A stretch of 64,000 nucleotides of DNA, from positions 31,785-95,784 of the forward strand of contig CAZKFH010000002.1 in assembly GCA_964551945.1 (NCBI GenBank), written 5' to 3'. The notes below the pieces were generated by a model that did not search any database, was not told where the DNA came from, and was given only the letters and a program-made list of their open reading frames with translations. The stretch is from an uncultured Actinomycetes bacterium (GTDB taxonomy: Bacteria; Actinomycetota; UBA4738; CALAEC01). A program made the translations under genes and the position numbers. Below are positions 43,840 to 61,296 of the stretch, in pieces; positions within the stretch are counted from its first letter, which is position 1; each line of letters opens with the position of its first letter.

Positions 43840-43982
43840 TGTTTGCATGGCTGCGCCGTCACCAGCCGCGGAACGTTCCTCTGGCGATCCTCTACTGGAC
43901 GGTCCTGACGGTGGGCGCGTTCTTCGCGCTGTTCCTGCTCTTCTACTTCGTCGTGGATCCGCTTCTGCCCGCGATGTTCTAG
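43839..43982 (+). CDS. Small membrane protein (47 aa) MFAWLRRHQPRNVPLAILYWTVLTVGAFFALFLLFYFVVDPLLPAMF
   Basis: Its ATG overlaps the DUF881 stop (TGATG). It is strongly hydrophobic. Confidence 0.3.
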   Translation: MFAWLRRHQPRNVPLAILYWTVLTVGAFFALFLLFYFVVDPLLPAMF

Positions 43983-46345
43983 GGGCGAAGCCGCAACGTC
44001 TTTTCCGCGTGCCGCTCCACCGCATCACGGCTGAACGGCATGGGGTGATGTGTTCCGGCTCCCCACAGGGGAAGCAGATCCGCGAAGTGCGGGCTCGCGG
44101 GATTCCCCGACTGGCCCACGGTGTGCGTGCCGATCGAGGCGTCCCAGTCGGAGGGATCGAGGATCTGACGCCACGACGGTGCCACGACGACGTCGTAGGA
44201 CCATCCGGGCTCGAACAGGCCCTGCGCGACGGTCTGCTCGTCGCCCCCCATCTCGACCACGCCGGCGGTGAACAGCTCGGCGAGATCGGGGATGAGCGCC
44301 AGGCGCCCCGCGAACGTTGCCTTGTGCAGAGATCCCCACTGCCAGGCGCCCATGTCCTCGCCCAACGCCGTCGTCAGCTCGTCGAGCGCTTCGTCGAGCG
44401 CCTCTCGAAGGACCGCGTCGCGAGCGGTGGTGCCGTTCGATCCCCACCACCGCGCCGTCGGATAGGTGAGCAGGTTCGGTAGGACCTGGTACTGGAACGC
44501 GTTGGTCCACTGCCGCCGTCCGTAGAAATGCGTCAGCAGCTCCTCGTCGCCGTCGAAGAGGCGACGCAGCACGCGAAGCGCGATGTGCTTGTTCCAGACC
44601 TCGTACATCGCGGCTGCGGAAGAGTCGGCAGCGACGTCGTGATCCCACTCGGCCAGTAGGGCGAGTGCAGACTTCTGCCGATCGCTCCCGGGCTCGATCG
44701 CGATCAAGGCAGGCACGAGATCGGCGGCGGGCAGGGAGACGGTATCCATCTGCATCCGCGCGAACGACGCGGCGTCGTGGGTCTCGCGCTCGCAGATCAT
44801 CTGCGCGACACGGCGGGCCCGAAACGGCGGGAGGAAGTCTCGGCCCAGATTGTGGGGATACCCCTCGTCGTGCATCTTGTTGTTGGCTGTGACGAGGAAC
44901 CCGTCCTCGGGGTTGAATGCCCTCGGGAGCTCCTCGAACGGCACCCAGCCGTCCCACTCGTAGTCGTCGGTCCATCCGGGCACCGGCACCGTCCCGTCAC
45001 CCTTGCGACGGATCGGGTACCTGCCCGTGAGCTGGTAGCCGATGTTCCCGTCGACGTCCGCGTAGACCATGTTCTGGCCCGGGCACTGCCAGTTGCGGAC
45101 GGCCTCCCGGAACTCGTCCCAGCTCCCCGCGGTGTTGATGGCGAAGATGGTCGAGGGCTCGACGCATGCCTCAGTGGCGGCCCACCGCAGGGCATACGTT
45201 TGTCGGATGCCGCCCTCGACGATCACGGGGTCGGCGATGCCGACCATGTAGGAGTCCAGGATCGGCCCATGTCGGCTCTCCTTGACCTCGACGACGTGCG
45301 GTTCGTCGTGGCCGCGCACCGCGATCTCCTCACGATGGATCGTGAGTGGCTCCCAAGAGCCGTTGTGCTCGGCCTGAGTCCCGTCCTCGGAGAGACGCTC
45401 GAGGTACAGGTCCATGACGTCGCCCTCGGTGTTCGTGAATCCCCATCCGATCCGCTCGTTGTGGCCGATGACGATCCCGGGGCTGAATGGGAACGTGACC
45501 CCGGCGGCGTGGTAGCCAGGAGTCGAGAGGTGGCACTCGAACCAGATCGACGGGGCGGCAACCGCGAGGTGTGGGTCGTTGGCCAGCAGCGGCTTGCCGG
45601 TGGCCGTGCGCGTCGCGTCCACGACCCAGTTGTTCGATCCTTGACCCGACGGCGGCAGGATCGCGTCGCGGAGGAGCGCGGCGCGATCGGGCCCGCCCTC
45701 CTTGCCGGCCTCCACGAGTGCGGACTCGGTGTCGAGGTCGGGGAACAGCATGCGCATGACCTCCGGCCCCAAGCGCTCCGCGATCTCCGCGCGAAGCAGC
45801 TCGTGGTCCCAGTTCCGCGAGAGGCCATACGCCATGAACACGGAGGTCGCGGCACCGACACCGACGATCTCGTCGTCTTCGGGGAGGACGGGCTCCACGT
45901 CGAGGACCTGGTACTCGACCGGTTTGGCCGGCATGGACTCGACCCATCCACGGAACCCTGCCAGGAAGTCATGTGCCATCTCCATCGAGCGGTCGTCGTA
46001 CCGGGCGCCGAGCGCCGCGCCGATCCGGTTCCACCCCATGGTCCTGACGTAGCGATCGATGGGAAGTGTGAGCTCGCTGAACAGCTCCGAGAGCGTCCCG
46101 GTTGCCAAGCGGGACAGGAAGTCGAACTGGAAGAGGCGCTCGGAGGCGATCACCCATCCCTGCGCCAAGAACAGGTCGTGGAGGTCCGTCGCGTAGATAT
46201 GGGGGACTCCCCAACGATCCCGGATCACGTCAACCTCGCCGTGCAAGCCGGGCGCTCGAACATCACCCTCCACGGGCGGGAGTGCCTGTTTCGCACCTTC
46301 GCGGACTGCCTCGACGAGCGGGTTCGGCGCCGCCTGATCGCTCAT
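43979..46345 (-). CDS. Penicillin amidase / acylase (S45 Ntn-hydrolase family)
   Basis: The length is 788 aa. The N-terminal pattern RDRWGVPHIYA and the autoproteolytic SNNWVV region fit this family. Confidence 0.8.
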   Translation of the reverse strand: MSDQAAPNPLVEAVREGAKQALPPVEGDVRAPGLHGEVDVIRDRWGVPHIYATDLHDLFLAQGWVIASERLFQFDFLSRLATGTLSELFSELTLPIDRYVRTMGWNRIGAALGARYDDRSMEMAHDFLAGFRGWVESMPAKPVEYQVLDVEPVLPEDDEIVGVGAATSVFMAYGLSRNWDHELLRAEIAERLGPEVMRMLFPDLDTESALVEAGKEGGPDRAALLRDAILPPSGQGSNNWVVDATRTATGKPLLANDPHLAVAAPSIWFECHLSTPGYHAAGVTFPFSPGIVIGHNERIGWGFTNTEGDVMDLYLERLSEDGTQAEHNGSWEPLTIHREEIAVRGHDEPHVVEVKESRHGPILDSYMVGIADPVIVEGGIRQTYALRWAATEACVEPSTIFAINTAGSWDEFREAVRNWQCPGQNMVYADVDGNIGYQLTGRYPIRRKGDGTVPVPGWTDDYEWDGWVPFEELPRAFNPEDGFLVTANNKMHDEGYPHNLGRDFLPPFRARRVAQMICERETHDAASFARMQMDTVSLPAADLVPALIAIEPGSDRQKSALALLAEWDHDVAADSSAAAMYEVWNKHIALRVLRRLFDGDEELLTHFYGRRQWTNAFQYQVLPNLLTYPTARWWGSNGTTARDAVLREALDEALDELTTALGEDMGAWQWGSLHKATFAGRLALIPDLAELFTAGVVEMGGDEQTVAQGLFEPGWSYDVVVAPSWRQILDPSDWDASIGTHTVGQSGNPASPHFADLLPLWGAGTHHPMPFSRDAVERHAEKTLRLRP

Positions 46346-46439: not shown

Positions 46440-48287
46440 ATGCCCCAACGCAGGAAGAGCTCGCGGAAGTCATCGTCGCGAAAGACCACCGCCAAGCGCA
46501 CCAGCGCCCAGCGGGCGCCCACGCGCAGGACGAGCGCCACGCGCGACAAGACCATTACGCTCCGGGACCGTCCGTGGTTGAAGTCCTACCCGCCGGGCGT
46601 CAAGGAGTCGATCGAGCCCTTGCCGGAGGAGTCGGTCTGGTGGCTCCTCGAGCGGAGCGTGGAGAAGTTCCCCGACGCACCGGCCGTGGTCTTCCCCGTC
46701 GCTCCTATGGCGAAGAAGCTCACCTACCGTCAGCTCAAGGATCAGGCAGAGCAGTTCGCCGGCGCCCTCGCCTCGATGGGTGTCAAGAAAGGTGACCCCG
46801 TCGGGTTGCTGCTCCCCAATTGTCCTCAGTTCGTGGTGGCCTGGTACGCGTGCCAGCGTCTCGGTGCGATCGCGGTCGGCAACAACCCCCTGTACACCCA
46901 GCGTGAGCTGACGCACCAGCTGTCGGACGCCGGCGTCAAGATCCTCGTCACGCTCGACCTGCTCTATCCGCTTGCCGCCGCCGTCCAGAAGGAGGCCGGC
47001 GTCGAGCAGATGATCGTGACGAAGATCGGCGACTACCTCGGGTGGCCGATCAACAAGCTGGCGCCTCTCAAGCAGAAGAAGGAAGCGCAGCACGAGGGAC
47101 GCTCGTGGCCGCCTGTGCCGGCAGACGCGCAGGTCACGTGGTGGAAGGACCTCATGAAAGGGTCGTACGGCCAGCTCCCGAAGCTCGAGGTGAACGCGAA
47201 GGAGGACGTTGCCGCGCTTGTCTACACGGGGGGGACGACGGGTCTGTCGAAGGGCGCGATGCTCACGCACTTCAATATGGTGTCGAACGCGCTCCAGACG
47301 GCAGAGTGGTTCACCGACACGAAGGAGGGCGAGGAGGGGATCATGTGCGTCCTCCCGTTCTTCCACTCGTACGGGTTGTCGGCCGTCATGAACGTCGGCA
47401 TCTCGAAGGCGATGAAGCTCGTGCTGCTCCCGCGGTTCGAGCTCGAGATGGCGCTCAAGGCGATCCAGAAGGAGAAGCCGACGTTGTTCCCCGGCGTGCC
47501 GAGGATCTACATCGCGATCAACGAGTCGCCGGAGTCGAGCAAGTACGACCTGTCCTCGATCCGCGCGTGCTTCTCCGGCGCCGCGCCGCTTCCCGTGGTT
47601 GTCGCCGAGAAGTTTGAGGCGATGACCGGCGGCCGCCTGGTCGAGGGGTACGGGCTCACGGAGACCTCACCCGTTACGCACATCAACCCGGTCTATGGCA
47701 AGCGGAAGTTCGGCACGATCGGTCTGCCGATCCCGGATACCGATTGCAAGATCGTGGATCTGGATGATCCGGAGAAGGAGGTCAAGGCGGGACAGGAGGG
47801 CGAGCTCTGCATGGCGGGCCCGCAGATCATGAAGGGGTACTGGAACCGCCAGGACGAGACGGACGACATGGTCCGGGTCCACAAGGACGGGATCCGTTGG
47901 CTCCACTCCGGCGACATCGCGAAGATGGACGAGGAGGGCTACTTCTCGATCGTCGATCGGAAGAAGGACATGATCCTGGTCTCCGGCTTCAACGTGTACC
48001 CCACCGATGTCGAGCAGGTCCTGTACCGCCACGAGAAGATCGCGCAGGTATGTGTGGTGGGGATCCCCGACGACACGACCGGCGAGGCCGTGAAGGCATT
48101 TGTCGTTCTCAAGCAGGGTCAGAGCGCGACGGAGAAGGAGATCCTCGAGTGGACGCGCGACTCGAAGCACGGGCTGACCGGCTACCGGGCGCCGAAGCAC
48201 GTCGAGTTCCGTGACGAGCTGCCGACGACGATGGTCGGCAAGGTGCTTCGGAGGGTCTTGCTGGAGGAGGAGAAGCAGAAGGCGTAG
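46440..48287 (+). CDS. Long-chain fatty-acid–CoA ligase (FadD/AMP-binding) with a ~45-aa basic low-complexity N-terminal tail
   Basis: AMP-binding motifs are present (TGGTTGLSKGAM, the GYGLTE core, and a C-terminal Lys). A strong AAAGGAG ribosome-binding site lies 6 nt upstream of the ATG at 46440. The tail reads MPQRRKSSRKSSSRKTTAKRTSAQRAPTRRTSATR. Confidence 0.85.
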   Translation: MPQRRKSSRKSSSRKTTAKRTSAQRAPTRRTSATRDKTITLRDRPWLKSYPPGVKESIEPLPEESVWWLLERSVEKFPDAPAVVFPVAPMAKKLTYRQLKDQAEQFAGALASMGVKKGDPVGLLLPNCPQFVVAWYACQRLGAIAVGNNPLYTQRELTHQLSDAGVKILVTLDLLYPLAAAVQKEAGVEQMIVTKIGDYLGWPINKLAPLKQKKEAQHEGRSWPPVPADAQVTWWKDLMKGSYGQLPKLEVNAKEDVAALVYTGGTTGLSKGAMLTHFNMVSNALQTAEWFTDTKEGEEGIMCVLPFFHSYGLSAVMNVGISKAMKLVLLPRFELEMALKAIQKEKPTLFPGVPRIYIAINESPESSKYDLSSIRACFSGAAPLPVVVAEKFEAMTGGRLVEGYGLTETSPVTHINPVYGKRKFGTIGLPIPDTDCKIVDLDDPEKEVKAGQEGELCMAGPQIMKGYWNRQDETDDMVRVHKDGIRWLHSGDIAKMDEEGYFSIVDRKKDMILVSGFNVYPTDVEQVLYRHEKIAQVCVVGIPDDTTGEAVKAFVVLKQGQSATEKEILEWTRDSKHGLTGYRAPKHVEFRDELPTTMVGKVLRRVLLEEEKQKA

Positions 48288-48343: not shown

Positions 48344-49015
48344 CTACTGTGGTGGTGTCGCGGCCGGCGGCGGTGGTGCTGCCGGTGGCGTGCCCGGGGG
48401 CTGCTCGAACCCCGCGGGCGCAGCTGTGGCCGGTCGGTCCGGCATCAGGAGCCGGATCAAGCCGGTGACCGCTGCGAGGATGAACGCCCCGAGCGTGAGC
48501 CAGTAGCCGATCTTGTTCTCCACGGCGATGAAGGCTTCCGCCTCCTGGCCGACGGCGTCGCCGATCGAGCTCTTGACCGAGCTCGCCAGCAGGAACATCA
48601 GGATGACGCCGACCACTCCGAGAACGAGGGCCATGATGCCGCCGGCTCGCCCCGCCATGAGCGCGAGGAAGATGCCGAGCAGCGCGATGGCCGCCGCCGC
48701 GATCGCCCAGATCTGGGAGAGGCCCAGGTCGACGGGGTCGCTCCCGCCGGCTGCGGGCGAGACTCCCGGCAGCGGCGTGGGACCACCGATCGGGAACCCG
48801 AGATCCGGCTGGAACTCGTCGGTGTCGGCCAGGTCTTCCTCGGCTCCGCCGGTGATGAGGTCCACACCGGTGACCTTGGTGAGCTCCCCTCCGCCACCTC
48901 CGCCGCCTCCCAGGCCGGGGATCCCGCCGCCTCCCGCGCAGGTCACGGCGAAGAACGGCAGGAAGAAGCACAGGATCGCGATCAGGAAGAACGGTGATGA
49001 TAGGTACCGCTTCAA
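48344..49015 (-). CDS. Membrane protein with a poly-Gly extracytoplasmic loop and a Pro/Ala-rich C-terminal tail
   Basis: The TTG at 49015 has a GAAGGGAGG ribosome-binding site. Multiple transmembrane helices are present. The loop reads GGGGIPGLGGGGGGGG and the tail PPGTPPAAPPPPAATPPQ. Confidence 0.4.
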   Translation of the reverse strand: MKRYLSSPFFLIAILCFFLPFFAVTCAGGGGIPGLGGGGGGGGELTKVTGVDLITGGAEEDLADTDEFQPDLGFPIGGPTPLPGVSPAAGGSDPVDLGLSQIWAIAAAAIALLGIFLALMAGRAGGIMALVLGVVGVILMFLLASSVKSSIGDAVGQEAEAFIAVENKIGYWLTLGAFILAAVTGLIRLLMPDRPATAAPAGFEQPPGTPPAAPPPPAATPPQ

Positions 49016-49192
49016 ATGAGCCTCCCTTCGGTTGATGGCAGGGTCATACGAGGGGGTCCTCAGAGTCAAGTTGGGGGTCCTCGATCTCGCCGGAAGGGTG
49101 AGGTCGTCGCCCCAGGAGATGCCACGCGACCAAGGAGAGGATCGCCGCGATGACCGTCACGCCCGCGAGTGCCGCGATGATCAAAGCGTCGC

Positions 49193-50818
49193 TCATGGCC
49201 GCTCCGCGGCTCGCCGCTTGGCCTCCGTGCGTCGCTCCGCCTCGAGACGCTCGAGCTTGACCGACGAGTGGTCAACGAAACGCATCGCGTCGGCGATCGC
49301 GCGATGTCCGGCCTGCTCGGCGATGAGGTGGTGCATCTCCTGACAGACGCGCCGGTACGTCGGATGGCCCTGGGGGGTGGTTCGCAGCTCGATGACATGC
49401 ATCGCCTCGCGGGCGTTCATCTGCATCACGAAGCGGATCCGGTACGCCATCGAGACGGCGTACTGACCGGCCTGGTCCAGCCCGCGCATGACGAGCTCGT
49501 CGTACAGGGTGGCTGACTCGGCCATCACACGATCCCAGTCGTCGGCCGCTCCGGCTTCCTCGACCTCGGGCGGCCGCTCGAAGCCGTGGATCGGCGACAG
49601 CCGTTGCCACTCGAGCGTGAGGAGGCGGTGGCGCTGGAGGTCCCGGAACGCGCCGTAGTCGCAGAGCACGTCGAAGCGGTACGAGGTCCGTTCGAACGCT
49701 CTCCCCGGCTTGTGCCGGCGATTGATCCTCTCTCCCACGTAGGTCTTCAGGACCCTGGCGCGCTCCTCGCTGTTCATGCCGCGCACGATGTGGAGAAGCC
49801 GGTCGTCGGGCACATCCGCGACCGAGTACAGCGCTGCGGCGACGACTTTCACCTCGCCGTCAGCGTCGAAATCGGTGAGCGTCACCTCGGGGCGCGTCGG
49901 GGGTGCGTCAAGGAGCTCGTTCACGAGGAAGCTGGCCGTTCGAAGCTCCGTCATGTCCTCTCGGGTCTTCTCCAGGTAGCGCGTCCATGCTCCACCGCGA
50001 TCTTCCACGTCGACGCGCGTGAGGAAGGCGGGGATCACCGCGCGCAGCTCCACGAGCATGAGGTCCGCGAACGACCGCACCTCCTCCAACGGATGGGCAC
50101 GCATGCGGAGGAGCAGCTGCTCGTACCCCTGCCCCGTTCCGTAGATCCCGACATTCGAGCGGGTCGCCGCGGGCAGCAATCCGCGCAGGGCGTCACATGC
50201 CTTCGCGCGGATCGTCGAGCGATAGACGAAGTCGCTGTCGCTCGGGTCCCTCGGGTAGCGCTCCTGGAGATGCTCCTGCAGCGGCTCAAGCCACTTCGCG
50301 TACGTCTCGAACGCGCTGTCGAGCGTTCGCTCGTAGCGCTCCGCGAGCCCCGCCCGGACCACCTCCGGCGGGGTGACGTAGCGCCACCGGCCACCCGGCC
50401 GGTCGTCGTACGGCACGTAGCGCGTCGACTGCTCGAGGTACGCCATCAGCCGTCCCCACTCGAGGACCTTGGCCAGAGGCTGTGAGGATTGCTCGCACGC
50501 GAGGTGCACGCCGCCGAGCTGCGCGACGGAGTCGTCGCCGTACTCGAGGAAGACACGCTCGTAGAGGTCCTCGGCTCGGGCTGCGCCGACGTTGTCGAGG
50601 AGCTGCTCGCTGCCGCGCTCCGCATGATCCGCGAACTCGTCGAGGAAGAGCCTGCGGAGGGACTTGGGGGATCGCGAGTACCGTGCGAACAGGGCGCCCT
50701 TCGTGACCTCGGGAAGGTTCACGAGGGCGAAGACCGGTTGATCGAGGTTCGAGAAGTGCGGGCGCAGGAGCCGTCGTTCCTCATCGGTGAACTCTTCCGG
50801 AGCGAACCAGAGCGTCAC
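49193..50818 (-). CDS. thyX: Tandem-domain FAD-dependent thymidylate synthase ThyX-like protein (N domain degenerate, C domain with RHR motif)
   Basis: The C-half motif FDVLCDYGAFRDLQRHRLLTLEWQRLS aligns with ThyX [29 protein letters not shown]. Both halves contain an ARxxLPxAT......TGxxR......R block. Confidence 0.55.
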   Translation of the reverse strand: MTLWFAPEEFTDEERRLLRPHFSNLDQPVFALVNLPEVTKGALFARYSRSPKSLRRLFLDEFADHAERGSEQLLDNVGAARAEDLYERVFLEYGDDSVAQLGGVHLACEQSSQPLAKVLEWGRLMAYLEQSTRYVPYDDRPGGRWRYVTPPEVVRAGLAERYERTLDSAFETYAKWLEPLQEHLQERYPRDPSDSDFVYRSTIRAKACDALRGLLPAATRSNVGIYGTGQGYEQLLLRMRAHPLEEVRSFADLMLVELRAVIPAFLTRVDVEDRGGAWTRYLEKTREDMTELRTASFLVNELLDAPPTRPEVTLTDFDADGEVKVVAAALYSVADVPDDRLLHIVRGMNSEERARVLKTYVGERINRRHKPGRAFERTSYRFDVLCDYGAFRDLQRHRLLTLEWQRLSPIHGFERPPEVEEAGAADDWDRVMAESATLYDELVMRGLDQAGQYAVSMAYRIRFVMQMNAREAMHVIELRTTPQGHPTYRRVCQEMHHLIAEQAGHRAIADAMRFVDHSSVKLERLEAERRTEAKRRAAERP

Positions 50819-50864: not shown

Positions 50865-52565
50865 TCAAGGAGTCGGCAGCGTCGGTGTGGGCTCGGTCGT
50901 GATGGTCTCTTCGGGCTCGGGCCCTTCCGATTCCACGACGCGAACCGTGGAGCCCTGCGTCACCTCCGCCCCTCCCCCGGGGTTCTGCTCGGCAACCGTG
51001 CCCTCGGGACATGACTCGGAGAACTGCGAGCCGACGACGTCGAAGCCCAGGCCGGCCGCGCTGATCTCCGCTTGCGCCTCATCGACGTCCTGGCACACGA
51101 CGTCGGGGACCGTGACGGTGCCGGGCCCGCCGGAGACCACCAGATCGACGGCACTCTCGGCATCGACCTTGGATCCGCCCGGTGGGGCCTGCTCGAGGAC
51201 GGTGCCCTCCTCCTCCTGGCTGTCCTGCGAGGTGACATTGCCGACCTCGAGCCCGGCGTCGATGATCGCTGCGGTGGCCTCGTCCTGGGTCAGCCCCACC
51301 ACCGAGGGAACCTCGACGCCCGGCTGGCCCTTCGAGACCGTGATCGTGACCGCGTCGCCTTCCTCCCCCGGACTGTCCGGCTCGGGGTCCTGCTGGAACA
51401 CGATCCCACGGCGCTCGTCCTCGTTGAACTCGCGCTCGACGCGGACCTGGAAGCCGAGCTCCTCCAGGGTGTCGGTCGCGTCCTCCTCGGTCTCGCCGAC
51501 CACGTCCGGGACCGTCAGCTCCGCCTCGGGTGGGACCAGCGAATTCACCAGGGCGAAGGCCGCGACCCCGAGGGCCGCCAGCACGAGTACGACGACGACG
51601 ACCGTCAGCCACGTGCGCCGCCGGTCCGGTCGCTCATCGGGGGGCACGCCGGTCATGACCGCCGTCTGGTCGGGTCGGCCCTGCGCCCGGGTCAGCATCT
51701 CGGTCGAGTCGGCGAGGATCGGCGTCGCAAGGGGTGTCCCACCCCGCCGCACACGCCGAAGGTCCTCGCGGAGCTCCTCCGCGGACTGGTAGCGGTTCGC
51801 CGGGTTCTTGGCCATGCACTTCAGGACGACGGCCTCGACCGCAGGGGAGACGTCGGGGTTCTTCTGGCTGGGCGGCACGGGATTCTCCCCGACGTGCTTG
51901 TAGGCGATCGTGACGGGAGAGTCGCCCGTGAACGGCGCACCGGCCGTGAGCATCTCGTAGAGCACGCACCCGACGGAGTAGATGTCGGAGCGCCCGTCCA
52001 CGCTTTCCCCTTGGGCCTGCTCGGGGGACAGGTAGGAGGCGGTGCCGAGGATGGATGCGGTCTGCGTGAGCGTGTCGCCGGTGGTGGTCCGGGCGATGCC
52101 GAAGTCCATCACCTTCACCTCGCCATCGCGGGTGATCATGATGTTGCCGGGCTTGATGTCGCGATGGACGAGCCCCGCCGCATGGGCGGCGGCGAGGGCG
52201 TCGGCGACCGACTCGGCGATCTCCATCGCCCGCTCGGGGAGCAGCGGCCCCTCCTGCCGGATGATGTCGCGAAGCGTCCGGCCCTCGACATACTCCATGA
52301 CGATGTAGTGCACGTCGCCCTGAGAGCCCGTGTCGTAGACGGACACGATGTTCGGATGGTTGAGGGCCGCGGCGGCTTGCGCCTCGCGGCGGAACCGAGC
52401 GACGAACTGCTCGTCGCCGGCGAACTGGGGCGAGAGGACCTTGACCGCGACCGTGCGGTTCAGCACTCGGTCGTTGCCCTTGAACACCCGAGCCATGCCC
52501 CCCTGACCGAGGACCGTGTCGATCTCGTATCGGTCGGCCAGGACGCGCTTGCGTTGCTCGCTCAC
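50865..52565 (-). CDS. pknB: Ser/Thr protein kinase PknB with extracellular PASTA repeats
   Basis: The kinase motifs are VAVK, HRDIKPGN, DFG and SPE. A single transmembrane helix is followed by at least three PASTA units (VPDVVGETEEDATDTLEELGF and others). Confidence 0.9.
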   Translation of the reverse strand: MSEQRKRVLADRYEIDTVLGQGGMARVFKGNDRVLNRTVAVKVLSPQFAGDEQFVARFRREAQAAAALNHPNIVSVYDTGSQGDVHYIVMEYVEGRTLRDIIRQEGPLLPERAMEIAESVADALAAAHAAGLVHRDIKPGNIMITRDGEVKVMDFGIARTTTGDTLTQTASILGTASYLSPEQAQGESVDGRSDIYSVGCVLYEMLTAGAPFTGDSPVTIAYKHVGENPVPPSQKNPDVSPAVEAVVLKCMAKNPANRYQSAEELREDLRRVRRGGTPLATPILADSTEMLTRAQGRPDQTAVMTGVPPDERPDRRRTWLTVVVVVLVLAALGVAAFALVNSLVPPEAELTVPDVVGETEEDATDTLEELGFQVRVEREFNEDERRGIVFQQDPEPDSPGEEGDAVTITVSKGQPGVEVPSVVGLTQDEATAAIIDAGLEVGNVTSQDSQEEEGTVLEQAPPGGSKVDAESAVDLVVSGGPGTVTVPDVVCQDVDEAQAEISAAGLGFDVVGSQFSESCPEGTVAEQNPGGGAEVTQGSTVRVVESEGPEPEETITTEPTPTLPTP

Positions 52566-52620
52566 CGGGGTCCCCTCACGCGGCCAACTCTAGCCGCCGG
52601 GCCACGCTGCGGGCCGGCGC

Positions 52621-54075
52621 TCAATCCTCGTCCTTCTTCTCGTGCCCCGGCGCGTTCTCGCTGTTGCCCGGCCCGGAGTCCTCGTCTTCCTCGCCGTCCT
52701 CGTCGCCGCCTTCCTCGTCCACGGGGCTCTCCTCGATCGTGGGCGTCGCGAGCATCGCCTGTCGCACCGCGTCGATCGCCTCGTGAACCGAGACCGCCAC
52801 GTCGGGAGACGCGAAGGCATCCGCCGCGGTCGCGATGTCCTCGTCCGCGTGGTCGAGATGCTCCAACGCTTTCTCCACATTTCCGCGCGCGTACTCCTCC
52901 GTCGCCTTCCCCTGCTCCTCGAGGATCTCGAGCCCCATCTCCTCGCTCACCAGGTCGGCTTCGACGGAGGCTCCGACCAGCTGCTGGAGCGAGAGCACCG
53001 CCTCGTCCACGCCCAGGAGGGCCGGGGGAGCCACCGACTCCTCCGGGACCGGTGTCCGTTCCGCCCGCCGCTGTCCGCCATCTCTGGATGGCTCATCCCC
53101 GCCGGTGAGCGCCAGGGTCGCGATCCCCGCGATCAGGAGGATCGCGGCGAGCACCGCGACCGGGACCCAGGAACGACGCGCCCCGGGCACCCGAGTGAGC
53201 GGCTCCGTGATCGTCGGGAGCACCGCGGTGTCTCCACCGATGGGCTCGGTTGGTTCCCCTCCCGCGGCATGCGTGATCGCTTGGCGGAACGCCTCCGCCG
53301 TGGTGAACCTCGCATCAGGGTCCTTCGCCAGCGCGCGCATCACGACCGCCTCGACCTCGCTCGGGATGGAGGGCTTCGCGTGCGAGGGTGGCGAGGGCTG
53401 ATCGTTCACGTGCTTGTAGGCGATGGAGAGGGGAGAGCCACCGGTGAACGGCGGGCTCCCCACGAGCATCTCGTACGTGACGCATCCGAGGGAGTAGATG
53501 TCCGAGCGATGGTCCACGGTGTCGCCGCGGGATTGCTCGGGCGACAGGTACGAGGCCGTCCCCATGATCAGCCCGGTCTGCGTGAGGGTGTCATCGGTCG
53601 CCGCGCGTGCGATCCCGAAGTCCATGACCTTCACCTCGCCCCTGCGGGTGAGCATGACGTTGCCGGGCTTGACGTCCCGGTGGATCAAGCCCTGGCGGTG
53701 CGCCGCCTGGAGGGCTTCCGCGATGCCGGCCGCGATACGGGCCGCGTGGTCGGCGGAGAGCGGTCCCTGGCGCCGCATCAGGTCCGCGAGGGTCTCGCCC
53801 TCGACCAGCTCCATCACGATGTAGTGCTCTCCGTCGGTGTCTCCCGTGTCGTACACCGACACGATGTTGTTGTGGTTGAGGCCCGCGGCGGCTCGGGCCT
53901 CTCGCTGGAACCGGGTCACGAACTTCTCGTCTCCCGCATACTTCTTCGCCAGCACCTTGATCGCGACCGGCCTGTCGAGCACGCGGTCCCGACCGGCGTA
54001 GACCGTCGCCATCCCACCCGTGCCGAGCGTGCCCTGTATCTCGTAGCGGTCGGCGAGCACGCGTCGATCCGCCAC
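52621..54075 (-). CDS. pknA: Ser/Thr protein kinase PknA-like (TM-anchored, acidic C-terminal tail)
   Basis: The kinase motifs are VAIK, HRDVKPGN and DFG. The transmembrane helix is WVPVAVLAAILLIAGIATLAL. Confidence 0.85.
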   Translation of the reverse strand: MADRRVLADRYEIQGTLGTGGMATVYAGRDRVLDRPVAIKVLAKKYAGDEKFVTRFQREARAAAGLNHNNIVSVYDTGDTDGEHYIVMELVEGETLADLMRRQGPLSADHAARIAAGIAEALQAAHRQGLIHRDVKPGNVMLTRRGEVKVMDFGIARAATDDTLTQTGLIMGTASYLSPEQSRGDTVDHRSDIYSLGCVTYEMLVGSPPFTGGSPLSIAYKHVNDQPSPPSHAKPSIPSEVEAVVMRALAKDPDARFTTAEAFRQAITHAAGGEPTEPIGGDTAVLPTITEPLTRVPGARRSWVPVAVLAAILLIAGIATLALTGGDEPSRDGGQRRAERTPVPEESVAPPALLGVDEAVLSLQQLVGASVEADLVSEEMGLEILEEQGKATEEYARGNVEKALEHLDHADEDIATAADAFASPDVAVSVHEAIDAVRQAMLATPTIEESPVDEEGGDEDGEEDEDSGPGNSENAPGHEKKDED

Positions 54076-54078
54076 GGC

Positions 54079-55557
54079 CTAGCCCCTCAGGTGCGCTTCG
54101 ATCAGCGTCTTGGCGATGGGAGCCGACAGCTCCCCCCCGGTTGCCTCGTTCCCGAGGCTTCCGCCGTTGAGGATCACGACCGCCACGGCGATCTCGGGGT
54201 CGTCGGCAGGAGCGAAGGAGACGAACCAGGCATGTGGCGACTCACCCTCTGCTGTCTGTGCCGTCCCCGTCTTGCCGGCGACGACGATCCCGGGCACCTG
54301 CGCGCCGCTCCCCGTTCCCGACTGCACGACGGCGACCATCATCTCGGTGAGGATCCCCGCGTTCAGCTCCGACAGCGGCTCCCCGTACTCGGAGGTTCCG
54401 ACGTTGCGGAGGATGCGGCCTTCGGGGTCGCGGACCTCGCGGACGAGCCGAGGCTGCATCATCGTGCCGTGGTTGCCGATCGCTCCGGCCACGAGCGCCA
54501 TGTGCAGAACGTTCGTGCGGACGTCTCGTTGTCCGATCCCCGACTGCGCCACCGCGGGGATGTCGTCCTCGAACGCTGACACCGGCGGGATCTCGGATTC
54601 GACGAAGGGGATGTCGAACTCGATGTCCTGGGAGAAGCCGAAGCGCTGCGCTTGATCGACCAGCGTCTCGGGGCCGATCTCGACCGCGAGCTGCGCGAAG
54701 TAGACGTTGCAGGAGATCTGCAAGGCCTGCGCCATGTCGATCTGCGAGCCGCCCGGGCACGTCACGCCGCCGAAGTTCTCGAGGTCGTCGGTCGTCTGCG
54801 GCACGTCGTACGCGGTCGGGTTCGGCAGCAGATGGTCGGCTCCCAGTCCCGCCTCCAGCGCGGCGGCCGCGGTCACGATCTTGAAGGAGGAGCCCGGTGG
54901 AAAGAACGTGTCGGTCGCTCGCGACACGAGAGGCGAGTCCGGCTCGTCCGGGTTCAACGCCTCGTAGGCGCGCTGGACCACCGATCCGCGAGCGTGCGAC
55001 GCGATCGGGTTCGGGTCGTAGGTCGGGCTCGAGACGAGGGCGAGCACGTCACCGGTCCGCGGGTCGATCGCCGCGACCGCTCCCTCGGATCCCTCGAGGG
55101 CCTCCGCCGCGAGCTCTTGGAGCACGGGCTCGATCGTGGTGACGATGGTCGCCCCCTTCAGGTCCCGTCCCAGGAACTCGTCGATCAATCGCTGCGGGAA
55201 GAGCTCCTCCGCCCTCGCGGAGAGCTCGTCGTTGAATGCCTGCTCGAGCTCTGTGCGTCCGTACTTGAAGGAGTAGAAGCCGGTCAGATGTCCGTAGCCG
55301 AGCTCGGGGGGTTGCGGGTACACCCGTTGATACTTGAGCTCGCCGCCGGTTCGACGCGTGTCGGCCAACAACGTCCGCCGGTCGGCGGCGAGGATCAGGC
55401 CCCGATCCACCTCGTACTCCTGGATGAGCAGCCGCTTGTTCGCGTTGTTGTTGGCGATCCTGTCCGCGGCGATGACCTGCAGGTAGTTCAGGTTGATCGC
55501 GAGCGCCGCGAACAGCACGAGGATGCCGAGTGCGAGCTTTCGGATCTGGCGGTCCAT
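54079..55557 (-). CDS. pbpA: Penicillin-binding protein PbpA (class B transpeptidase)
   Basis: The true start, the ATG at 55555..55557, overlaps the rodA stop. The SxxK motif is GSSFK. The KTGT motif is present. The track's 841-aa ORF includes a spurious upstream extension. Confidence 0.85.
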   Translation of the reverse strand: MDRQIRKLALGILVLFAALAINLNYLQVIAADRIANNNANKRLLIQEYEVDRGLILAADRRTLLADTRRTGGELKYQRVYPQPPELGYGHLTGFYSFKYGRTELEQAFNDELSARAEELFPQRLIDEFLGRDLKGATIVTTIEPVLQELAAEALEGSEGAVAAIDPRTGDVLALVSSPTYDPNPIASHARGSVVQRAYEALNPDEPDSPLVSRATDTFFPPGSSFKIVTAAAALEAGLGADHLLPNPTAYDVPQTTDDLENFGGVTCPGGSQIDMAQALQISCNVYFAQLAVEIGPETLVDQAQRFGFSQDIEFDIPFVESEIPPVSAFEDDIPAVAQSGIGQRDVRTNVLHMALVAGAIGNHGTMMQPRLVREVRDPEGRILRNVGTSEYGEPLSELNAGILTEMMVAVVQSGTGSGAQVPGIVVAGKTGTAQTAEGESPHAWFVSFAPADDPEIAVAVVILNGGSLGNEATGGELSAPIAKTLIEAHLRG

Positions 55558-56906
55558 CAGCCGCCTCGATCCTTGGCGGCGCGCATGAACTGCGTCGCCT
55601 CCGCGTCCTCGGCCGGGCGCTCGCGGGTTCCCGCTGAGACCCGGATCAGCAGAGCGAGCAGCACGAAGTTCGCGACGAGGCTCGATCCTCCGTAGGACAC
55701 GAACGGCAACGTGATGCCCGTCAGGGGGATGAGGCGTGTGACCCCACCGACGATGACGAACGTCTGAAGGGCGAGCGTCGTCGCGAGGCCCGTCGCGAGC
55801 AGCTGACCGAACCCGTCCGGGGAGCGAACCGCGGCGCGTAATCCACGGAAGATGAGCAGCACGAACAGGAGGAGCACCGCCATCGCCCCCAGCAGGCCCA
55901 GCTCCTCTCCGACCGCCGAGAAGACGAAGTCGGTGTGCGCATCCGGGATGATCCCGGGGCTGCCCTGACCCAGTCCCGTGCCCGCGATCCCGCCCGTCGC
56001 CAGCGCGAACAGCGACTGCGCGAGCTGATACCCCTGGACCTGAATCAGCTCGGGGTCGAACACGTTCAGCCAGACCGCCACCCGGTCCTGGACATGGTCG
56101 AACATGGTGTAGCCCGCGAACGCACCCGCGGCGAACAGCACGAACCCGAGCGCGAGATAGGCGGCCCTGCCGGTCGCGACCCACAGCATCACGACGACGA
56201 TCCCGAAGAAGAGGAGCGAGGAGCCGAGGTCTTTCTCCAGGAACAGGACGACGAGCGAGACCCCCCACGCCACGAGCAACGGGGCTAGGTGCCGGGGCTC
56301 CGGAAGCGCGAGCGGGCCGATCCGCCGCGTCGCGACCGCGAGCAGCTCCTTCCGAGCGTTGAGGTAGGAAGCAAGGAAGATGACGAGCAGGACCTTGCCG
56401 ATCTCGGCGGGCTGGAACTGCAAGGGACCGATCCCCACCCACAGCCGCGCCCCGCGCACCTCGCGGCCGATCCCGGGGGCGAGTGGCAGCAGGAGCATGA
56501 GCAGGCCAATGAGGCCGATCGTGTACGTGTACTGGTCGAGCTGGCGGTGGTCGCGAACGACGATCAGCGTCAGCGCGAAGAGAGCCAGGCCGAGGAGCAG
56601 CCACAGCGTCTGCGCGTCACCGAGCTCGGGTCTCAGGCGGTAGATGAACGCGAGTCCCAGTCCGGCCAGCAGCACCGCGGCCGGCAGGAAGACCGGGTCC
56701 GCCGCGGGAGCGAAACGGCGCACCAGGACGTGGACCAAGAGGTAGGCACCGGTCAGCGCCAGGCCGTACGCCGTGAGGTCGACGGGGATCGCTCCGTCCA
56801 ATCCGAGACCCACCAGCGCATACGCACCGACGGCGATGACGTTCGCGAGCACCAGGAGCGCGAGCTCGGCGTTTCTCCGGGCCCGGCCGAGGTCGGGCGA
56901 GATCAC
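55557..56906 (-). CDS. rodA: SEDS-family peptidoglycan glycosyltransferase RodA/FtsW
   Basis: It has ten transmembrane segments and the conserved SEDS motifs. Confidence 0.85.
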   Translation of the reverse strand: MISPDLGRARRNAELALLVLANVIAVGAYALVGLGLDGAIPVDLTAYGLALTGAYLLVHVLVRRFAPAADPVFLPAAVLLAGLGLAFIYRLRPELGDAQTLWLLLGLALFALTLIVVRDHRQLDQYTYTIGLIGLLMLLLPLAPGIGREVRGARLWVGIGPLQFQPAEIGKVLLVIFLASYLNARKELLAVATRRIGPLALPEPRHLAPLLVAWGVSLVVLFLEKDLGSSLLFFGIVVVMLWVATGRAAYLALGFVLFAAGAFAGYTMFDHVQDRVAVWLNVFDPELIQVQGYQLAQSLFALATGGIAGTGLGQGSPGIIPDAHTDFVFSAVGEELGLLGAMAVLLLFVLLIFRGLRAAVRSPDGFGQLLATGLATTLALQTFVIVGGVTRLIPLTGITLPFVSYGGSSLVANFVLLALLIRVSAGTRERPAEDAEATQFMRAAKDRGG

Positions 56907-58033
56907 CGTGCGCCCGCCGGTTCGTCCGGCTGCGTCGAGCCGAGAGCCGTTCGCATCTGCTCGATGATCGACCGGGCATCCTCCTCGCTCGCTGCGGTGA
57001 TCCCATCCGAGAGGCCCTGGTATTCGGGAAAGGCGCCGACCTCCTCCGCGGAGAGTTCAGGGAACTCCTTGACCGCGCTCGAGAGGTCGATGCCGAGCGG
57101 CGCTGCCGGGATGCCCCGGTACAGCGCGATGACCCCGTTCGATTCGCCCACGTAGAACTGGTTGTCGATCCAAAGAGCCTTCGCGGCCCAGAGCGCTCCG
57201 GTGATCACCACGAGCACAGCCACCAGCCAGACCATCCATGGCCGCACCCGTCTCCGATCCGCGGCTCGAGCCACGGCCGGGCGGCTGGCAGATCGCAAAG
57301 GCGATCCCACCTCGGTCTGTTTCTCTCCCGTAGCGTCCAGCACGTCGATGACGACCGCCGTGATGTTGTCCTGTCCGCCGCCCGCGTTCGCGGCGTCGAC
57401 CAGAGCGTTCGCGGCTGCCTGGGGATCGGCATGTTCGGTGAGGATCCGAGTGATCTCATCCTCGCCGATCATCCCGGTGAGCCCGTCGCTGCAGAGCAGA
57501 AGGCGGTCCCCCGTACGAGGCTCGATCGCTCCCTGGTCGACCTGCAACGACTGGTCGACCCCGAGCGCACGGGTGAGGATGCTGCGCTGCGGATGGATCT
57601 CGGCTTCCTCCGCGGTGAGGCGTCCCTCGTCGACGAGACGTTCGACCACCGTGTGGTCCTTGGTCAGTCGTTGGATGGTTCCGTCACGGAGCAGGTAGGC
57701 GCGGGAGTCTCCGACGTGGGCCAGCCGAAGCACGTTCCCCTCGTGTCGGAGCGCCGTCAGCGTGGTGCCCATGCCGGTAAGCCCGGGGTCACCCGCGGCA
57801 CGCCGGAACACCTCGTCGTTGGCCTTGCGCACGAGCCCCTCCAATGGGCCATCACCTTGGGAGAGAACCTCCAGGGCGACGCTCGAGGCCACCTCGCCGC
57901 CTTGATGTCCGCCCATGCCGTCCGCTACGGCGAACAGCGGCTCGTTGGCCGTGTACGAGTCCTCGTTGCCCTTGCGCACGCGGCCGACATCGGTCCGTGC
58001 ACCGACGCGAAGCTTCATAGGTGCCCTCGTCAC
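56903..58033 (-). CDS. pstP: PP2C-family Ser/Thr phosphatase PstP with a C-terminal TM anchor
   Basis: The PP2C motifs are GRVRKGNEDS, DGMGGH and DSRAYL. The transmembrane helix is PWMVWLVAVLVVITGALWAA. Confidence 0.85.
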   Translation of the reverse strand: MTRAPMKLRVGARTDVGRVRKGNEDSYTANEPLFAVADGMGGHQGGEVASSVALEVLSQGDGPLEGLVRKANDEVFRRAAGDPGLTGMGTTLTALRHEGNVLRLAHVGDSRAYLLRDGTIQRLTKDHTVVERLVDEGRLTAEEAEIHPQRSILTRALGVDQSLQVDQGAIEPRTGDRLLLCSDGLTGMIGEDEITRILTEHADPQAAANALVDAANAGGGQDNITAVVIDVLDATGEKQTEVGSPLRSASRPAVARAADRRRVRPWMVWLVAVLVVITGALWAAKALWIDNQFYVGESNGVIALYRGIPAAPLGIDLSSAVKEFPELSAEEVGAFPEYQGLSDGITAASEEDARSIIEQMRTALGSTQPDEPAGAR

Positions 58034-58491
58034 TTCCGTACCTCGATCACGGTCTTCCCGACCCGGATGCGGTCACCGGGCGAGAGCTGCGAGGGGACCG
58101 TCACCTTCTGCTGATTGAGATATGTGCCGTTCGTTGATCCCAGGTCCTCGACCAGCCACGAGCCATTGCGTTCGAAGATGCGCGCGTGCTGCTGGGACAG
58201 GTAGGTGTCGTCCGGGCGGATCGCGCAGGTTGCGTCGCGGCCGATCTCGAGCGCCTCGCTCAGCCGGTGCGTGCTGACGCGCGAGCCGTTCTCATCCAGA
58301 ACGACCACCTTTGTCGGCGAGCCGCGTCCCCGCCGAGCCGGTCGTGCTCGTTCTCGCGATCGCTCTCCCTTGGGGCGCCGCTCCCGTGGTCCGTAGAGGT
58401 CGATGACGACGGCACGAACCGCTCGCCAGACGAAGAAGTACAGGAGGGCGAGGAGCGCGATCTTCAGGACGGTCAGGACGAATGCCGGCAT
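58030..58491 (-). CDS. fhaB: FHA-domain membrane protein FhaB (FipA)
   Basis: The start is the ATG at 58489..58491 (MPAFVLTVLKIALLALLYFF). The C-terminal FHA domain reads GRDATCAIRPDDTYLSQQHARIFERNGSWLVEDLGSTNGTYLN. Confidence 0.8.
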   Translation of the reverse strand: MPAFVLTVLKIALLALLYFFVWRAVRAVVIDLYGPRERRPKGERSRERARPARRGRGSPTKVVVLDENGSRVSTHRLSEALEIGRDATCAIRPDDTYLSQQHARIFERNGSWLVEDLGSTNGTYLNQQKVTVPSQLSPGDRIRVGKTVIEVRK

Positions 58492-58493
58492 GC

Positions 58494-59198
58494 TCAGGCC
58501 TTCCTGAACTCGAGGACGGTTCTGCCGATCGTGATGCGGTCGCCGTCCTCCAGTGTGGACTCGGAGACGGGAGCGTCGTTCAGAAGGGTGCCGTTGGTCG
58601 AGCCCAGGTCCACCAGGAGGTAGTCCTCCCCGTCCCGCCGGATCTCCGCATGCCGCCTGCTGGCGCCCGGGTCCTGGATCTCGATCTCGGACCCGGAGAT
58701 GCGGCCGATCACGGCCCGCTCGCCGTCGAGCTGCCACTCCTCGTTGGAGCCTTGGAGGGTCAATCGCGCCGCATGCCCGGCGCCGGCGGGGGCCACTGCG
58801 GCGGGACGCTCGGCGGTTTGCGGCCCGGGGGCCTCCGAGAGCTCGGCGCTCACGATCAGGTCTCCCTTCTTCAGCCCCTCGTCGGTCTCGAAGACGACCT
58901 CGGGACGGGCCACCAGGCCGTGGCCACCCTCCTTGGCGCCCTCGGAGACGACCGTCTCCAGCTCGCGGATCAGGGCACCCTCCATGCTCGCGAATCGCTC
59001 TCGATCCGCCGCGGAGATCGTGAGGATGTAGCGGTTCGGCACCCAGACTTCCTTCACGCCGACGGTCTTGGCGGTCTCCATCTCGCGCAGGATGCGCTTG
59101 GCGATCTCGACCGGCTGGAGGCCGGAGCGGAAGGCCGCCTTGAAGAAGCCCTCGATCCCTCGCTCGAGGCGGCTCTCGAAGTTGCGTAGAACACCCAT
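58494..59198 (-). CDS. fhaA: FHA-domain protein FhaA (DUF3662 + FHA)
   Basis: The start is the ATG at 59196..59198 (MGVLRNFESRLERGIEGFF, the DUF3662 N-terminus). The C-terminal FHA reads GRISGSEIEIQDPGASRRHAEIRRDGEDYLLVDLGSTNGTLLN. Confidence 0.8.
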   Translation of the reverse strand: MGVLRNFESRLERGIEGFFKAAFRSGLQPVEIAKRILREMETAKTVGVKEVWVPNRYILTISAADRERFASMEGALIRELETVVSEGAKEGGHGLVARPEVVFETDEGLKKGDLIVSAELSEAPGPQTAERPAAVAPAGAGHAARLTLQGSNEEWQLDGERAVIGRISGSEIEIQDPGASRRHAEIRRDGEDYLLVDLGSTNGTLLNDAPVSESTLEDGDRITIGRTVLEFRKA

Positions 59199-59388
59199 TT
59201 TGCGAGTGGTTTCCCCTGGTCGGAGGCGGCGAATCGCCCGGATTATAGGCATCGGACCCCTTCGGGCCCCTGATACGAGGTGGCTCGGGTCGTGTAGCCG
59301 GTCGAAAGGGTTATTTCGATTCCACGTCGAATGGTACTGGTGAGCCGCCGAAGGAGCGGTCCGATCTCGCCCATGGAGGAGGAGCCCG

Positions 59389-61296
59389 ATGCCCGTACGA
59401 GCCGCCCTGCTCGTTTCCGTCCTGACGATGACCGCCCTGCAAGTCACCAGCGTGGCCGCGGATCACGAAGCGTTCAGCCCCGAGGCACAGATCGCGATCG
59501 TCCACCTGGGTGTGGATCCCGAGAGCGTGAGGGTCACGGACGAGTACACGTCCGATCACAACGGGGTCACTCACGTGTATCTGCGGCAGATCGAGAATGG
59601 CGTGGACGTCGCCGGCGCCGACGCCACGGTCAACGTACAGAACGGCGTCGTCGTCTTCAGCGGGACGCGCTTCGTCGAGTCTGAGGCCCTCTCGGGAGCG
59701 CAGGTATTGACCGCCCGCCAGGCTCTCGAAGCCGCTGCGACCACCATCCACTCCGACACCGCGGAGGTTGTGGCCGCGCCCGTTCTCCTGTACCGAGTGC
59801 TGGATGATGGGACCGTCAGGCTGGCCTACGACCTGCAGATCCAGACCCCCCGCCACTGGTGGAACCTCTCGGTCGACGCCGAGAACGGACGCGTCGTCCA
59901 TCGGTACGACTTCGTGGACAGCGAGAGCGCGGAGCACATTGCCGCGAGGACGGCGAGGCAGGAGGATACCCACGCGGTCCGGGGGATGCTGGCTGCGATC
60001 GAGCCGCCCCAGCAGGCCGCCGATGGATCCTCCTACAACGTCTTCGCGATGCCCTTGGAGAGCCCCAACGACGGGAATCGCCAAGTGGTCCACAACCCCG
60101 CGGACTCGGAGGCCTCGCCCTTCGGATGGCACGACACGAACGGTGTCGTCGGACCTGAGTACACGATCACCCAGGGCAACAACGTCAACGCCTACGGGGA
60201 CAGCGACAACAACAACGCTCCCGATCCCGCCAGCCAGCCGGACGGCGGCGCGAGCCTCGACTTCAACCACCTGATCCCGACCTATGACGCTTCTCCCGCT
60301 GTGTACCGGGACGCCGCGGTCGACAACCTCTTCTACTGGAACAACGTCATGCACGACGTGACCCACAAGTACGGCTTCAACGAGGAAGCGGGCAACTTCC
60401 AGGTCACGAACTACACGGGCACCGGTGTCGGCAACGACGCGGTCCAGGCCGAGGCGCAGGACGGCGGGGGCGTTCTAAACGCGAACTTCGCCACACCGGC
60501 TGACGGCGCTCCCGGGCGGATGCAGATGTACCTGTGGGCCGATGCGTTCGACACGCTCGGCCTGGGAGTTGAGGACGTCGTCCGCCCCTACAGCCATCAG
60601 GTGCGCGACGGCGACCTCGACGGCGGCGTGATCGCCCACGAGTACGGGCACGGGATCTCGAACCGCCTCGTCGGCGGACCGAGCAACGTGAGCTGCCTTC
60701 GAACCCACGACGAGCGCGAGGGCGAGGGATGGAGCGACTGGTGGTCGTACGTCCTGACGATGCGTCCCGGAGACGACGGCTCCACGCCTCGGGGCATCGG
60801 TACCTACGTGGTGTACCACGACGAGGGCCGGACGGGGACGGGCATCCGCATCACGCCCTACTCCACGAACATGACGATCAACCCCTCGACGTACAACACA
60901 ATCAAGACCGCCCTTGAGCCGCATGGCGTCGGCTATGTGTGGGCCTCGATGTTGTGGGACCTCTACTGGAACCTCGTCAAGGCGCACGGTTTCAACCCGA
61001 ACCCGTACGACCCCTGGCAAACCGGGGGGAACAACCTCGCGATCCAGCTCGTCATGGACGGGATGAAGTTCTCTGCATGCGAGCCGGGGTTCGTCGATGC
61101 TCGCGATGCGATCATCGCCGCCGACGCCGCCCTGACCGGCGACGTCGCGAACGGGGTTCCCGGCGCGAACGAGTGCCTGATCTGGCGGACCTTCGCGCGC
61201 CGGGGTCTGGGTGTCGATGCGAGCCAGGGCAATTTCGAGAGCAAGACCGACGGCAAGAACGGGTTCAAGTTTCCCGACCACTGCGCCGCGGGCTGA
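59389..61296 (+). CDS. Secreted M36 (fungalysin-like) zinc metalloprotease with FTP/PepSY propeptide
   Basis: The signal peptide is MPVRAALLVSVLTMTALQVTSVAA. The zinc site HEYGHGISNRL and a downstream Glu match the M36 signature. Confidence 0.75.
   Translation: MPVRAALLVSVLTMTALQVTSVAADHEAFSPEAQIAIVHLGVDPESVRVTDEYTSDHNGVTHVYLRQIENGVDVAGADATVNVQNGVVVFSGTRFVESEALSGAQVLTARQALEAAATTIHSDTAEVVAAPVLLYRVLDDGTVRLAYDLQIQTPRHWWNLSVDAENGRVVHRYDFVDSESAEHIAARTARQEDTHAVRGMLAAIEPPQQAADGSSYNVFAMPLESPNDGNRQVVHNPADSEASPFGWHDTNGVVGPEYTITQGNNVNAYGDSDNNNAPDPASQPDGGASLDFNHLIPTYDASPAVYRDAAVDNLFYWNNVMHDVTHKYGFNEEAGNFQVTNYTGTGVGNDAVQAEAQDGGGVLNANFATPADGAPGRMQMYLWADAFDTLGLGVEDVVRPYSHQVRDGDLDGGVIAHEYGHGISNRLVGGPSNVSCLRTHDEREGEGWSDWWSYVLTMRPGDDGSTPRGIGTYVVYHDEGRTGTGIRITPYSTNMTINPSTYNTIKTALEPHGVGYVWASMLWDLYWNLVKAHGFNPNPYDPWQTGGNNLAIQLVMDGMKFSACEPGFVDARDAIIAADAALTGDVANGVPGANECLIWRTFARRGLGVDASQGNFESKTDGKNGFKFPDHCAAG

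Follow-up and report, generated by a model that had tools for sequence, protein, structure and literature searches.

Flavin-dependent thymidylate synthase (FDTS, ThyX) is an antibacterial target whose reaction mechanism is still partly unsettled. The canonical enzyme is a homotetramer of four identical chains of ~220–250 residues, as in Mycobacterium tuberculosis (Mtb) Rv2754c (2AF6/3GWC) and Thermotoga maritima TM0449 (1O26). In the Mtb enzyme, each site is built by three subunits (PMC6514825): R95-H96-R97 and R199 come from subunit A; S71 and R190, the contacts to flavin adenine dinucleotide (FAD), come from subunit B; and R87, S105, R107, Y108, and R172, the contacts to deoxyuridine monophosphate (dUMP), come from subunit C. 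A second described system is PolB, a UMP/dUMP C5-methylase of polyoxin biosynthesis (4P5A; PMC5003785), which is a single-domain protein encoded in an antibiotic gene cluster. Here, we describe a double-length thyX gene in a 64-kb stretch of DNA (hereafter the window) from contig CAZKFH010000002.1 of an uncultured Actinomycetes bacterium. Judging from the sequence, the gene probably (at roughly 0.75) encodes a functional flavin-dependent thymidylate synthase whose single chain joins two ThyX domains that diverged long ago; the enzyme would convert dUMP, methylenetetrahydrofolate (CH2-THF), and NADPH to deoxythymidine monophosphate (dTMP).

Two ThyX domains in one chain

The open reading frame (ORF) and its parts are given below, in window coordinates and in residues of the 541-residue protein.

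49193..50818, minus strand: whole ORF, two-domain ThyX of 541 residues (GTG start at 50818, stop at 49193–49195)
49940..50818, minus strand: N half, residues 1–293, a ThyX-fold domain with dUMP-side residues and without RHR (Pfam Thy1 and Mtb ThyX profile match)
49886..49939, minus strand: linker, residues 294–311 (in the AlphaFold2 (AF2) model, helices 272–293 and 296–304 precede the first C-half strand, 312–317)
49280..49885, minus strand: C half, residues 312–513, a ThyX-fold domain with RHR/FAD-side residues and without SxRY (Pfam Thy1 and profile alignment to T. maritima ThyX)
49196..49279, minus strand: charged C-terminal helix, residues 514–541 (AF2 helix 523–539, lower confidence)

The GTG start is supported because homologs align from residue 1. 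At the other end of the protein, the charged helix contains the motif ERLEAERR, which is kept in close relatives.

The Pfam model Thy1 (PF02511) matches the whole protein with 141 bits over two stretches. When the protein was cut in two and each piece was scanned separately, the N half scored 67.7 bits (E 1.5e-18, residues 73–263) and the C half 77.3 bits (E 1.7e-21). Each half alone therefore exceeds the gathering cut-off of 24.8 bits by a margin that chance would not give, which bears out the proposal, first made from the letters and ORF translations (the original prediction), that two Thy1 domains lie in one 541-residue chain. A phmmer search of the whole protein against PDB sequences gave no match, and profiles of each half were needed: the N-half profile matches Mtb ThyX (3GWC/2AF6) at E 5e-7, and the C-half profile aligns to T. 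maritima ThyX with 34 bits.

We know of no solved structure of a fused ThyX. An AF2 model built with a 78-sequence alignment, including relatives from the candidate phyla radiation (CPR) and DPANN archaea, has a predicted local distance difference test score (pLDDT) of 89.8 and a predicted template modelling score (pTM) of 0.88; an earlier model from 32 close homologs (73–87% identity) had a pLDDT of 53 and was useless. In the better model, each half shows one and the same succession of strands and helices, and the protein has the ThyX fold. The halves resemble one another remotely (hhalign E 8e-4), and this weak likeness argues for an ancient duplication, neither a recent tandem copy nor an assembly artefact. 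We found no support for two adjacent thyX genes having been joined by a sequencing or assembly error, an explanation with a negligible chance of being correct: it is ruled out by the same remote likeness, together with the full-length architecture and conserved linker in thousands of independent assemblies.

Active-site residues and a proposed assembly

Residue equivalences were taken from profile alignments to Mtb ThyX and T. maritima ThyX; the numbering of the T. maritima sequence used reproduces the published H53, S88, R90, Y91, R147, and R174. Conservation was counted over 99 full-length representatives of 50%-identity clusters, which are 36–62% identical to the window protein. The motifs, in protein order, are as follows.

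50450..50458, minus strand: W121-G122-R123, in the RHR place of the N half (aligned to R95-H96-R97 of Mtb ThyX)
50417..50428, minus strand: S131-T-R133-Y134, SxRY dUMP-binding block (Mtb S105/R107/Y108; T. maritima S88/R90/Y91; profile alignment)
50171..50188, minus strand: L211-R212-G-L-L-P216, where R212 corresponds to Mtb R172 and T. maritima R147 (dUMP phosphate)
49691..49723, minus strand: N366-R-R-H-K-P-G-R-A-F-E376, conserved basic loop (near-invariant in two family alignments)
49625..49645, minus strand: R392-D-L-Q-R396-H397-R398, RHR motif with the equivalent of T. maritima R74 (R392; profile alignment)
49382..49417, minus strand: N468-A-R470-E-A-M-H474-V-I-E-L-R479, where N468/R470/R479 correspond to T. 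maritima N163/R165/R174 and Mtb N188/R190/R199

The N half lacks RHR, with W121 and G122 replacing R95 and H96, and Q230 stands in place of R190. Positions 121 (W/R/D) and 122 (G/S/P/A) are variable among the relatives; R123, the equivalent of Mtb R97, is kept in 96/99. Ten residues after W121, S131 opens the stretch STRYVP (residues 131–136), in which the SxRY block is strongly conserved (S131 in 96, R133 in 97, and Y134 in 94 of the 99). R212 is invariant (99/99), and S97 corresponds to Mtb S71. The original prediction had read WGR in the place of RHR, together with an intact SxRYV, and we agree on both; the further block that it worded as ARxxLPxAT is in fact ALRGLLPAAT (residues 210–219).

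In the C half, RHR is found at residues 396–398, its only occurrence in the protein, inside DLQRHRLLTLEWQRLS. The relatives keep R392 (93/99), R396 (98/99), H397 (94/99), and R398 (96/99), and further along the domain N468 (88/99), R470 (93/99), H474 (85/99), and R479 (95/99). The LSGRY segment is a deletion here in the profile alignment to T. maritima ThyX, and Q452/Y453 are found where the R172/R147 arginine is expected. An RHR(x7–9)S signature had been assigned to this half; the RHR portion holds, and S408, the serine that completes it, does not stand as the catalytic serine. Among the relatives, that position is T in 49, S in 19, and G in 14 of 99. The basic loop NRRHKPGRAFE is without counterpart in canonical ThyX and occupies the place of GH(E/F)(T/S)PxEH.

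Neither domain carries the contiguous signature RHRx7–8SxRY, which is complete only across both. The full FAD/dUMP-contacting set is present when the halves are taken together: S97, S131, R133, Y134, and R212 from one, and R392, R396–398, N468, R470, and R479 from the other. The retained residues are kept in 85–99 of 99 relatives, and the lost positions vary freely. Since neither half holds the canonical site alone and both together hold the full set, the halves are best regarded as complementary. Read from these alignments, they are degenerate in complementary ways, and the pattern is near-invariant across the 99 diverse relatives. The asymmetric motif pattern of the covalent fusion is therefore as first described, with RHR in the C half only and SxRY in the N half only. 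The accompanying idea of one degenerate active-site contributor has to be given up, for both halves are degenerate: the N half is without RHR and R190, and the C half is without SxRY and R172/R147. In the literature searched, we found no description of a fused, tandem, or pseudo-dimeric ThyX or of a complementary split, and this division of labour between the halves appears to be undescribed there.

Mapped onto the three-subunit site of the Mtb enzyme, the C half would supply the roles of subunits A and B (R396-H397-R398, R479, R470, and N468) and the N half that of subunit C (S131, R133, Y134, and R212). In the canonical enzyme, R190 of one subunit contacts the FAD that a neighbouring subunit holds by its RHR. 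Here both features, RHR and the R190 equivalent, are retained in the C half alone, so that two C halves would have to face each other, which points to a homodimer. Each FAD would stack on dUMP held by SxRY and R212 of an N half. Chains pairing via their C halves would form an N2C2 pseudo-tetramer with two complete FAD/dUMP sites, compared with four in the canonical tetramer; no activity would be expected at the two mirror sites, where an N half would need to bring RHR and a C half SxRY. We infer a homodimer that mimics the canonical tetramer, with two sites and not four.

Function and distribution of the family

Thymidylate kinase (Tmk) acts just after thymidylate synthase, and dUTPase acts just before it. 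Both enzymes are found fused to relatives of the window protein, with an N-terminal thymidylate kinase domain in P0198, P0205, and P0223 and an N-terminal dUTPase in P0212, and these fusions tie the family to dTMP synthesis. Several independent sources record P0205, and the same is true of P0223 (NCBI HUY53308.1); each also lies on more than one contig. The cluster of P0212 contains a second protein that is nearly identical, and P0198 is a single record. The asymmetric residue pattern is kept in all four. Catalytic competence had originally been called uncertain, and the relatives fused to thymidylate kinase or dUTPase ease that doubt. The original prediction had also suggested looking for thyA and folA; within the 64-kb window, there is no thyA, folA, or canonical thyX. 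The full residue set, the occurrence in minimal genomes and phages, the lack of these three genes in the window, and the fusions together support a dUMP-to-dTMP synthase.

Several points weigh against this reading and should be kept in mind. The TIGR02170 thyX equivalog model scores 55.1 bits, under its cut-off of 87.9, which leaves the protein outside the equivalog, and the name "thymidylate synthase" therefore rests on a Pfam-level match. The equivalent of T. maritima H53, which stacks on folate, is ambiguous: for the C half, one alignment gives P371, and H369 lies two positions away; for the N half, it is D95. The homodimer proposed above is drawn only from residue logic. Finally, the genome may have a second thymidylate synthase outside the 64-kb window that our search covered.

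A rival reading is a paralog derived from ThyX that uses a different substrate or makes a different product, as a PolB-like methylase or hydroxymethylase of UMP or dCMP would, beside a normal thyA or thyX elsewhere in the genome. We consider this unlikely, because the two halves between them retain every residue that contacts dUMP in canonical ThyX, and because the thymidylate kinase and dUTPase fusions point specifically to dUMP-to-dTMP chemistry. Furthermore, phages and minimal CPR and DPANN genomes carry members of the family, and the neighbours of the window gene (pknB, pknA, pbpA, rodA, and a fatty-acid ligase) provide no antibiotic-cluster context. Less likely again is the picture conveyed by the original prediction, in which the C half alone is catalytically relevant and the degenerate N half, serving as a scaffold or a regulatory pseudo-domain, takes no part in the chemistry. 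One might favour it on seeing that RHR is confined to the C half, which also has the higher Pfam score. However, with SxRY deleted and Q452/Y453 in place of the R147/R172 arginine, the C half alone would have no canonical dUMP binding, and the N-half residues are kept in 94–99 of 99 relatives, which argues for purifying selection on catalytic residues. We prefer a thymidylate synthase that uses both domains.

The fused gene had been thought an unusual architecture that may exist in a few lineages, and this view does not survive a wider search. Among 1.84 billion cluster representatives there are 4619 matches, with 1051 clusters (50% identity) at E<=1e-30, and the best 150 matches are nearly all 510–580 residues long and matched end to end. 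When one genome per species was scanned, the fused gene was present in at least 595 species genomes or loci, with hosts in Actinomycetota (many Acidimicrobiia), Acidobacteriota (Vicinamibacterales), Rokubacteria, Binatia, Dormibacterota, and Dehalococcoidia; more distant members come from CPR/Patescibacteria and DPANN archaea, and there are phage members as well. The family is already annotated in the sources, as "FAD-dependent thymidylate synthase" or "thymidylate synthase ThyX". The window gene is thus a typical representative of a very large, annotated family and an ordinary housekeeping enzyme in its lineage.

Some records call for individual comment. Three loci (L015, L024, and L031) lie on contigs labelled as Bifidobacteriaceae or Bifidobacterium breve metagenome-assembled genomes, and their fused genes are 62–63% identical to the window protein; we give the bin labels as recorded. 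Most short relatives that match one half only, N or C, are fragmentary and lie on short contigs; they were not counted as split genes. Four one-domain-sized proteins (P0262, P0266, P0233, and P0201; 250–303 residues) are encoded on long contigs, 55 kb to 1.7 Mb, and may reflect either frameshifts in long-read assemblies or genuine gene splits. Extensions of 120–215 residues without a Pfam match are found at the N terminus of P0140 (640 residues), P0176 (729 residues), and P0195 (667 residues) and at the C terminus of P0129 (717 residues). The extension of P0176 looks real, since 729-residue copies sit on contigs of up to 353 kb. In P0230 (644 residues), the C-terminal DSHCT domain of a Ski2-like helicase is joined to the ThyX part; the gene call or a frameshift probably created this fusion, because a Ski2-like helicase is the usual upstream neighbour in Acidimicrobiia.

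A broader proposal is more tentative, and we would put it slightly below an even chance: the two-domain proteins may form a distinct, structurally uncharacterised FDTS class, an obligate N2C2 pseudo-tetramer whose roles were divided between the halves by an ancient duplication, with two sites left where the canonical enzyme has four. Such proteins may serve as the principal or sole thymidylate synthase of large, mostly uncultured groups (Acidimicrobiia, Acidobacteriota, Rokubacteria, CPR, and DPANN), and the NRRHKPGRAFE loop might offer a new mode of NADPH or folate binding. If this is true, the FAD/RHR and dUMP roles lie on separate, linked domains, which amounts to a ready-made heterotetramer whose roles can be mutated separately, unlike those of the homotetramer, and which allows a direct test of whether half the sites suffice. 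The family carries a generic Pfam-level label only, and a dedicated family model would improve its annotation.

Neighbouring genes and known systems

The fused thyX is the last gene of a complete actinobacterial cluster for cell division and signalling, fhaA-fhaB-pstP-rodA-pbpA-pknA-pknB (window 50865–59447, minus strand), whose members are listed here in that order.

58494–59447, minus strand: fhaA
58030–58737, minus strand: fhaB
56903–58033, minus strand: PP2C phosphatase (pstP)
55557–56906, minus strand: rodA/ftsW
54079–55557, minus strand: pbpA
52621–54075, minus strand: pknA-like kinase
50865–52565, minus strand: pknB, with three PASTA domains

The mechanical ORF list makes pbpA 841 residues long, running in frame into rodA. 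The thyX gene starts 46 bp past the stop of pknB, a PASTA-domain kinase, and we found no promoter-like site between the two; it is probably co-transcribed with the cell-division cluster. When 80 loci were compared, no conserved partner that would inform function emerged, and the pknB adjacency is lineage-specific. In Acidimicrobiia, the gene usually sits beside the Ski2-like helicase and an M20 peptidase, and its neighbours are different again in other lineages. The family as a whole does not keep the linkage to pknB, from which no general inference about function can be drawn.

Directly downstream of thyX, an ORF of 241 residues (48344–49069, minus strand) contains hydrophobic segments, runs of Gly, and a C terminus rich in Pro and Ala. 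No Pfam model matches it, and it may be a membrane protein; the gene call is uncertain, as high-GC ORFs overlap here on both strands. Beyond it are an AMP-binding enzyme of the acyl-CoA ligase type (46440–48287, plus strand), unusual in being extended at its N terminus by ~45 residues in which Lys, Arg, Ser, and Thr are frequent (MPQRRKSSRKSSSRKTTAKRTSAQRAPTRR...), and a 788-residue penicillin amidase family protein (43979–46345, minus strand; Pfam PF01804, 705 bits).

Among possible double-length relatives, one should consider the chlamydial ThyX, Chlamydia trachomatis CT632, which is ~529 residues long and biochemically active. It possibly has the same double-length architecture, in which case a characterised member would already exist. 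There is no chlamydial protein among the matches listed, and low-GC representatives considered as chlamydial members proved to be DPANN or CPR. The chlamydial ThyX was excluded from the original ThyX tree because of too little identity (PMC6171736).

Two-domain homologs are also found in phages, namely Microcystis phage Ma-LMM01 and the jumbo phages Yong and BONAISHI of Vibrio and Tunturi_5 of Tunturiibacter. The 491-residue protein of Ma-LMM01 aligns over 533 columns, covering both domains, and the tblastn phage matches span 69–81% of the query. The phage homologs match at only 20–27% identity, and several are annotated as hypothetical. In Vibrio phage vB_VmeM-Yong (MK308674–MK308677) and BONAISHI (MH595538), the annotations are "hypothetical protein" or "thymidilate synthase-like protein", and re-annotation is possible.

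A further comparison is within the family itself: the Tmk-ThyX-ThyX and dUTPase-ThyX-ThyX fusions have the same two-domain body as the window protein, with an extra N-terminal enzyme that the window protein lacks. In contrast to the single-domain PolB, the window protein has two domains, a housekeeping context, and relatives fused to Tmk or dUTPase; its surroundings are the fhaA-fhaB-pstP-rodA-pbpA-pknA-pknB genes, the AMP-binding ligase, and the penicillin amidase, and not a nucleoside-antibiotic cluster. Whereas canonical ThyX assembles four copies of one short chain, the window protein is a single 541-residue chain of two diverged domains, with the RHR...SxRY signature split between them.
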